Assembly (NCBI RefSeq): GCF_016026235.1
Contig: NZ_CP065613.1
Length of the DNA: 64,000 bases
DNA from: Escherichia coli
Lineage (GTDB): Bacteria > Pseudomonadota > Gammaproteobacteria > Enterobacterales > Enterobacteriaceae
Strand: one strand, 5' to 3'
A program made the position numbers and the translations under genes. Of the stretch, positions 5,544-6,341 are shown piece by piece. Position 1 is the first letter of the stretch. Each line of letters begins with the position of its first letter. Under the pieces are notes generated by a model. The model was not told the DNA's origin and made no database searches. It saw nothing but the letters and a program-made list of their open reading frames with translations.

Positions 5544-6341
5544 TTACCCCGGTTGTCACCCGGATCATAGTCACTTGATGTGACTATGATCCGATTAATA
5601 CTCTCTCCGCTACGCAGTGTTGTAGATCAATTGCGCACTATCATTGAAATAATTACCTGCTAGTGATTATTTCAACCTACTGAATTTCATCTAATTTTTT
5701 TCACTCCATGGCAAATTAGCCATTTCAAACATTATCATGGCTGATATTTTCCGTAGTCAGGTTTAATGTTTTAAAAGTGCTGTGGGAAAGTGAACAAAGA
5801 GTTCCGTAAGCGTTGATGCTATGGGCGGTTAAATAAGTAATCCGGGTTCATTTTTTTGCAACTGGCGTTGATTACATTGCATAAATATCCGTGTCTCCAG
5901 ACGCTATATAAAAACCTGAAGACATGAATGCGTTATTTACTCAGGTAATTTCAATGCGTTAAAAGAAAGCTGGCAATCCAATTGCCAGCTTAAGTCGAAA
6001 CAAGGAGACTCGATATTTAAATCGGATTACATTTTAACTTTAGTAATATTCTTCAGAGATCACAAACTGGTTATTGATAACTTATTCTTGGGCAGTAATC
6101 CGCAAACGTTAACTTTTTGTTTACTATTTACAAGCTGATAACAACCAGGAATCTTACTTAGGATCAATATATGGAGTGCGTGATGGATAAATCTGAAGTA
6201 TTGATTAGTGTTAATAGACGTATTAGTTCACGAAGGGTAAAGTTCTTATAGGCGTTTACTATATTGAACAACGATTCGGACAAGGATGTAAATAATGAAA
6301 AGGATGACATGTTCGAAACGATAACGGCTAAGGAGCAAGTT
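5544..6341 (+). promoter_or_regulatory. large AT-rich gadE upstream control region (multiple gadE promoters; expected site of the ArrS antisense RNA)
   Basis: 798-bp ORF-free AT-rich spacer upstream of gadE seen in sequence; regulatory content is from established knowledge of the gadE locus, individual sites not mapped here. Confidence 0.55.

Follow-up and report, generated by a model that had tools for sequence, protein, structure and literature searches.

The question raised by this locus is whether the long AT-rich DNA that precedes gadE in the Escherichia coli strain of contig NZ_CP065613.1 (assembly GCF_016026235.1) is the same control region as in K-12, with its several promoters, its activator sites and the antisense RNA ArrS, or whether strain-specific differences have accumulated in it. 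The DNA analyzed is a stretch of 64,000 nucleotides, referred to here as the window, which contains the acid fitness island of E. coli. In it, the interval 5544-6341 coincides exactly with the 798-bp spacer between hdeD and gadE, whose length is also the one given for this region in the literature (PMC3708157). We are highly confident that this spacer represents the canonical gadE "sensory integration region" of E. coli and that it carries arrS.

The spacer has a G+C content of 36.2% compared to 50.7% for the whole window, and only 1.3% of the 798-bp windows along the 64 kb are equally AT-rich; the AT-rich tract runs on into gadE itself (32.8% G+C). This bears out the first-pass annotation, which had described a large AT-rich spacer in front of gadE. 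Its further description of the spacer as ORF-free holds for annotated genes, as the RefSeq records of K-12, O121 RM8352 and FDAARGOS_943 list no CDS in it, but not literally, since short mechanical ORFs occur on both strands (35, 63, and 30 aa on the minus strand; 12, 26, and 9 codons on the plus strand), none of them with supporting evidence. The spacer is nonetheless the largest stretch of the window lacking an ORF of at least 100 aa. The mechanical gap between such ORFs measures 720 bp here (next largest 447 bp, median 180 bp) and not 798 bp because a TTG-extended gadE frame begins at 6264.

Two of the plus-strand frames, those of 26 and 9 codons, might be taken to mean that the spacer is partly coding, with a short translated upstream ORF in the leader coupled to the control of gadE in the way that EvgL is for evgA. 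Both start with ATG behind a Shine-Dalgarno-like motif, and the evgA leader peptide offers a precedent within the same regulatory cascade (PMC11210196). However, the K-12 RefSeq record annotates no ORF in the spacer, most of the few substitutions that strains and species show in the two frames change the amino acid (V>A, R>K, V>A, C>Y, R>Q), and a literature search for an upstream ORF in the gadE leader found nothing relevant. We therefore hold a coding role to be highly improbable and read the spacer as regulatory DNA.

Alignment with the equivalent K-12 MG1655 spacer (NC_000913.3 3657568-3658365, also 798 bp) was ungapped, with 795/798 identical positions, no indels, and neither rearrangement nor loss of any known element. 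The GadE protein is 100% identical to that of K-12. The sole feature annotated in the K-12 spacer is the ncRNA gene arrS (b4704, 3657985-3658054, minus strand). Published K-12 data were placed on the window by simple conversion (window position = NC_000913.3 coordinate - 3652024 = NC_000913.2 coordinate - 3650047), and the offset was checked in two ways. A perfect GAD box at window 15635-15654 falls within the GadE ChIP-exo peak for gadA, and the "distance to TSS" values of the ChIP-exo data give T3 at -566 and T1 at -124 of gadE. The resulting features are collected in Table 1.

Table 1. Features of the hdeD-gadE spacer and its flanks in window coordinates, with the share of variable alignment columns among 11 Escherichia sequences
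Feature	Position	Strand	Basis or description	Variable columns
hdeD	4971-5543	+	gene calls; stop immediately before spacer
hdeD 3' hairpin (inverted repeat I3)	5561-5574 / 5580-5593	+	perfect 14-bp stem, 5-nt loop; 18 nt past hdeD stop codon
YdeO box	5645-5674		TGAAAT-N18-ATTTCA; starts at -131 from T3; same element as inverted repeat I4
GadX/GadW site cluster around P3	5688-5796		K-12 ChIP-exo, PMC4918353 supplementary tables 2-3
GadW sites	5688-5723, 5772-5796		K-12 ChIP-exo (PMC4918353)
GadX sites	5688-5723, 5707-5738, 5728-5751, 5764-5795		K-12 ChIP-exo (PMC4918353)
P3/GadXW block	5709-5790			14/82 = 17%
P3 core	5762-5776	+	T3 start 5776 (PMC3708157, cross-checked by ChIP-exo); putative -10-like hexamer TTTAAT 5762-5767, from reading the sequence
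Distal part of spacer				67%
Leader segment upstream of arrS				83%
arrS, 70-nt sRNA gene	5961-6030	-	70/70 identical to K-12 b4704, terminator included	3/70 = 4.3%
ArrS intrinsic terminator	5967-5991	-	terminator scan: 11-bp stem, 3-nt loop, then UUUCUUUU (U-rich tail)
T2 5' ends (-324/-317)	6018/6025	+	PMC3708157; inside the ArrS-complementary stretch, 6-13 nt in
arrS promoter, putative	6037-6065	-	sequence reading: -35 TTGTGA 6060-6065, 17-nt spacer, C at -13 (6043), -10 TAAAGT 6037-6042	28%
Segment between arrS promoter and GadE site	6067-6145			42%
GadE autoactivation site	6146-6180		GadE ChIP-exo peak P11, PMC4918353 supplementary table 1; centre 55 bp upstream of T1	14%
P1 region with leader				8.6%
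Candidate upstream ORF	6171-6251	+	26 codons, ATG, AGGA 7 nt upstream
T1 start (-124) and short gadE leader	6218-6341	+	PMC3708157
Candidate upstream ORF	6295-6324	+	9 codons, ATG, AAGGA upstream
gadE CDS	6342-6869	+	ATG at 6342; 175 aa; followed by mdtE, mdtF

Three sets of gadE mRNA 5' ends are documented in K-12, namely T3 at -566, T2 at -324/-317, and T1 at -124, with a further, doubtful one at -21 (window 6321) (PMC3708157). All of them, together with the 3' ends of K-12 Term-seq (PMC7815308 supplement), map to sequence that is identical to K-12 in the window, so that the three promoters expected by the first-pass annotation are matched by three intact sets of 5' ends. The expectation stands less well for T2 as an independent promoter. 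The T2 ends lie inside the stretch complementary to ArrS, and the isolated P2 fragment was nearly inactive in fusions under anaerobic growth (PMC3708157); T2 may therefore arise, at least in part, by processing and not from a promoter of its own, and this applies equally to K-12. The multiple activator sites that had been anticipated are also present, as the GadE, GadX, GadW, and YdeO sites of K-12 map onto identical sequence save for one SNP at 5707. According to the K-12 literature, P3 integrates YdeO, GadX/GadW and, under anaerobiosis, ArcA, and P1 is autoactivated by GadE (PMC3708157, PMC4918353, PMC4222967).

Consensus scans were of little help in locating these elements. A sigma-70 scan of 5400-7250 returned 6 sites compared to 6.3 expected, none of them at P1, P2, P3 or the arrS promoter, and no good -35 was found at P3 by reading the sequence. 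A GAD-box scan of the spacer gave 20 matches of at least 11/20 versus 24 expected from shuffles, that is, chance level; the GAD-box-like TTAGGATCAATATATGGAGT at 6158-6177 within the GadE site matches the consensus at 11/20 positions and is not significant alone, so the true GadE site is identifiable only through its ChIP-exo coordinates. Since such scans miss known promoters and sites, the element map rests on K-12 experiments and not on motifs. The YdeO box is a palindromic element of a type that occurred in only 14 of 2000 shuffles, and it agrees with the published definition of the box and its -131 to -1 range (PMC4222967). As the inverted repeat I4 (5644-5675) it had also been considered as an RNA hairpin, which was rejected: substitutions at 5650 and 5655 in phylogroup B2 strains are uncompensated, and the YdeO box fits the repeat instead. 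In the two aligned phylogroup B2 strains the YdeO half-site reads TGAAAC for TGAAAT (5650 T>C), and the 165 bp next to hdeD are strongly diverged (~84% identity). Closer to gadE, the T1 leader holds four GGA motifs (6278, 6284, 6302, and 6332), the last within the AAGGAG Shine-Dalgarno sequence at 6330-6335, and CsrA has a KD of 138 nM for the gadE leader (PMC11210196).

The three differences from K-12 (window/K-12) are 5707 C/T, 6123 A/G, and 6311 G/A, which are -635, -219, and -31 relative to the gadE ATG; none lies within 60 bp upstream of the T3, T2 or T1 5' ends. It can be argued from their positions that the layout is K-12-like and yet functions differently in this strain, the SNPs altering regulator binding or leader function. 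Position 5707 is inside GadX/GadW footprints, where it makes for the only K-12 landmark whose sequence is not identical, and 6311 belongs to the T1 leader, 31 nt ahead of the start codon, which leaves room for quantitative deviation from K-12; the third SNP, 6123, is situated in the interval separating the arrS promoter from the GadE site. We consider a functional departure improbable. All three SNPs leave arrS, the YdeO box hexamers, the GAD-box-like core, and the Shine-Dalgarno sequence untouched. Moreover, in a comparison of 12 aligned sequences the window base at 5707 and at 6311 is that of all 10 other non-K-12 sequences, distant species included, leaving K-12 as the sole deviant, and 6123 is polymorphic within E. 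coli. This is evidence that the "differences from K-12" at 5707 and 6311 are alleles of the K-12 lineage and no peculiarity of the NZ_CP065613.1 strain. As a side observation, window 1500-9000 is ~100% identical to E. coli FDAARGOS_943.

The expectation that the region hosts the ArrS antisense RNA was confirmed by sequence search, which recovered K-12 arrS intact (70/70). The RNA reads 5'-GUAAUCCGAUUUAAAUAUCGAGUCUCCUUGUUUCGACUUAAGCUGGCAAUUGGAUUGCCAGCUUUCUUUU-3', folds with -20.2 kcal/mol (z = -3.84), and is antisense to positions -381 to -312 of the gadE T3 leader, downstream of the T3 start. Its 5' sequence GUAAUCCGAU, which matches K-12 exactly, holds the seed GUAAUCC, including C7. In K-12 Term-seq the strongest 3' ends by far, at 5960/5961 on the minus strand, correspond to the ArrS 3' end (PMC7815308 supplement). 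A weak 4-bp internal hairpin in the minimum-free-energy fold of ArrS (nt 21-24 with 35-38) was unsupported, as the sole substitution in E. whittamii and E. sp. E1V33 (5996 C>A, G35>U in ArrS) breaks the pairing. Upstream of arrS a putative promoter can be read, whose layout (-35, C at -13, -10) is one typically seen with sigma-S. Its spacer positions differ in E. whittamii and E1V33, which nonetheless retain the -35 as well as the C at -13 and have TAGAAT or TAAAAT as the -10. Dependence of arrS on sigma-S and GadE is stated in PMC6755755, which cites Aiso 2011 for it. Rfam returned no ArrS family, either in E-value mode on 3000-9000 or in gathering mode on the whole window; Rfam being without such a family accounts both for the lack of a match and for the lack of a PGAP annotation of arrS in non-K-12 records.

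Functionally, ArrS of K-12 has been described both in cis and in trans. Processing of the ArrS/gadE duplex depends on RNase III and raises GadE output (PMC6212723, PMC8708148, PMC5145812). ArrS also binds Hfq and acts in trans, activating cfa via its 5' seed and repressing fepA via its terminator loop (PMC6755755, PMC5145812); seed pairing with cfa mRNA was tested genetically, C7 by compensatory mutation (PMC6755755). Deletion of arrS gave no acid-shock phenotype (PMC6755755), and therefore the physiological weight of ArrS is uncertain.

The spacer is nearly universal in E. coli. It was found whole in 5413 of 5426 complete genomes with an identity of 95.7-100%, and arrS in 5411 of the 5426, identical in 4095. 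By quarters of 200 bp, only the hdeD-proximal one falls to 80-90% identity, in 1301 genomes, and the other three never fall below 95%. The sequenced examples of the divergent hdeD-proximal allele are phylogroup B2 strains. Their only arrS variant is 5990 T>C, which turns an A-U pair of the terminator stem into G-U, so that terminator pairing is kept. About 13-15 of the 5426 genomes are without the region; a natural deletion variant is E. coli strain 3059 (NZ_CP103559.1), in which a Tn3-family transposase remnant cuts the spacer after ~232 bp and gadE through most of gadA is absent.

Beyond E. coli, a scan of ArrS nt 1-20 against species-representative genomes gave matches in Escherichia only (an E. 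coli representative, E. whittamii, E. sp. E1V33, and E. sp. MOD1-EC7003), plus one contaminant-like contig. The latter is an 8.6-kb contig of Flavobacterium paronense CECT 8460 (NZ_JAUFQN010000010.1), 98.5% identical to E. coli hdeD-gadE with many 1-nt indels, and almost certainly represents E. coli DNA that contaminated a long-read assembly. The locus of E. whittamii and E1V33 shows ~88% identity, and its spacer measures 717-718 bp owing to deletions of window positions 5837-5858 and 5890-5960 (71 nt). It follows that the two species can dispense with this part of the T3 leader, whereas they retain arrS. ArrS itself is 69/70 identical in both, compared with 26-81% for the flanking spacer segments. 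Across the 11 Escherichia sequences arrS has the lowest share of variable columns in the spacer (Table 1); conservation is also seen in the P3/GadXW block, the GadE site, and the P1 region with its leader. The conservation of arrS ends at both boundaries of the transcript: in E. whittamii the first substitution 5' of ArrS is at 6031, one base beyond the transcript 5' end, and the 71-nt deletion stops precisely where ArrS has its 3' end.

An antisense RNA encoded in cis is perfectly complementary to its sense target whatever the primary sequence. Because cis pairing needs no particular sequence, and yet conservation tracks the transcript ends, the pattern argues for selection acting on the RNA as such, which agrees with the trans-acting roles of ArrS, as far as can be judged from the aligned sequences. 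The same fact, that cis function alone gives no reason for primary-sequence conservation, may also be turned the other way, namely that the 70-bp block is constrained by the sense strand, through gadE leader structure, a P2 promoter or a regulator DNA site, with ArrS as a by-product. The T2 5' ends and a sense-strand Term-seq 3' end at 5995 also lie within the block, and the arrS deletion is without an acid phenotype (PMC6755755). Nevertheless, we find such a sense-strand constraint distinctly improbable. The boundaries of conservation, with the substitution at 6031 and the deletion ending at 5960, are those of the ArrS transcript; K-12 Term-seq records ArrS at very high abundance, up to 982,952 reads versus ~1,400 for the sense 3' end (PMC7815308 supplement); and trans targets that need the ArrS 5' seed have been shown genetically (PMC6755755), which accounts for the constraint on its sequence. 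Selection on the ArrS RNA thus remains our preferred reading.

The hairpin of the ArrS terminator is palindromic and therefore also forms in the sense-strand T3 leader. The K-12 sense-strand 3' end at 5995 (-347), within the long gadE leader, is located 4 nt past this hairpin (PMC7815308 supplement) and could reflect either bidirectional termination or trimming after duplex cleavage. It is conceivable, if on balance unlikely, that the terminator hairpin works on both strands, giving in the sense direction a premature 3' end in the T3 leader, and that ArrS transcription or pairing decides whether P3 transcripts reach gadE. If this were true, conservation of the 70-bp block would be that of a combined attenuator and sRNA module, and the covarying hairpin behind hdeD would be part of this scheme, insulating hdeD from P3.

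This second hairpin is a single-copy structure of strong stability (fold z-score -4.3) which is unannotated in the RefSeq records of K-12, O121 RM8352, and FDAARGOS_943. Three of its 14 pairs show compensatory changes across Escherichia: C-G became U-A in B2 strains, and E. whittamii and E1V33 have CC/GG in place of GA/UC. Paired cells make up 94%, a share that falls to 23-43% on sliding the partners. The hairpin lacks a U tract behind it, and in K-12 Term-seq a 3' end (3657621 on the plus strand, window 5597) is found 4 nt past its stem (PMC7815308 supplement). Most likely, the hairpin defines or protects the 3' terminus of the hdeD mRNA, acting either as a terminator or as an exonuclease block.

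Taken as in K-12, the control region would work in several coordinated layers. The identity of elements with K-12, the terminator structure, and the conservation pattern were obtained here, the binding, transcript-end, and phenotype data come from the K-12 literature, and we infer that the same regulation operates in the NZ_CP065613.1 strain. Firstly, H-NS/StpA would silence the locus by acting on AT-rich DNA; their occupancy of this AT-rich locus was seen in K-12, where condition-specific activators relieve repression (PMC3708157, PMC12266141), and the AT-richness of the spacer is consistent with such silencing. Secondly, gadE-mdtEF would be transcribed from distal P3, under the YdeO box and the GadX/GadW sites, and from proximal P1, with the T2 ends in between, and GadE bound at its own site would activate P1 in a positive feedback loop. 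Thirdly, GadE would activate the sigma-S-type promoter of arrS on the opposite strand (transcribed from 6030 to 5961). ArrS would pair perfectly with the T3 leader, and RNase III would cleave the duplex to yield a shorter, more productive gadE mRNA, which may reinforce GadE production in acid and in stationary phase. In addition, ArrS together with Hfq would act on other mRNAs, as in the activation of cfa through the 5' seed, and CsrA bound to the GGA-rich proximal leader would repress translation.

The control region, its promoters, its regulators, and ArrS were already described in K-12 between 2004 and 2014, and they are carried almost unchanged here. Compared with the K-12 sensory integration region with its promoters P1, P2, and P3 (Sayed & Foster 2009, as cited in PMC3708157), the flanking genes and the length are the same, and the mapped transcription starts and the regulator sites are identical save the one SNP in the GadX/GadW footprint. 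The differences amount to the three SNPs and to the strain background, which is chu+ with a heme ABC transporter gene adjoining yhiD. With regard to K-12 ArrS (b4704; Aiso et al. 2011, 2014), the seed, terminator, U tail, antisense position, and upstream promoter sequence are all the same, and there is no sequence difference. What this analysis adds is a coordinate map of the known elements, the finding that no other block of the spacer is as conserved across Escherichia species as arrS, and the attribution of two SNPs to what appear to be K-12-lineage alleles.

ArrS has a counterpart in GadY, a cis-encoded, Hfq-binding antisense RNA located between gadX and gadW in the same acid fitness island, which likewise promotes processing of its sense mRNA and, by RIL-seq, also acts in trans (PMC5145812). 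The sequences of the two RNAs are unrelated, and GadY pairs with the gadX-gadW intergenic region and 3' UTR, whereas ArrS pairs with a 5' leader. In the window GadY (Rfam RF00122) is at 12837-12950. The Rfam search, by E-value on 3000-9000 and by gathering threshold on the whole window, found only ES205/GadF, GadY, rdlD, naRNA4, and a tRNA; apart from the first two, the matches are three tandem rdlD antitoxin RNAs (ldr/rdl type I toxin-antitoxin repeats), naRNA4, and the tRNA, at 52051-53082 and 60999-61249. The sRNA GadF, derived from the gadE 3' UTR, is at 6968-7058 on the plus strand, to which the K-12 gadF annotation maps, with an ES205 (RF02754) match at 6987-7058 (105 bits) and a Term-seq end at 7057 (+) (PMC7815308 supplement). 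Antisense to it and directly after gadE, at 6870-7148 on the minus strand, PGAP calls a 92-aa "hypothetical protein" (WP_001205326.1) in non-K-12 records, which is unannotated in K-12 and possibly a spurious call. Lastly, the heme ABC transporter ATPase gene (chuV/shuV-like) that adjoins yhiD occupies 2256-3179 on the plus strand, so that in this strain the acid fitness island harbours the chu heme-uptake cluster.
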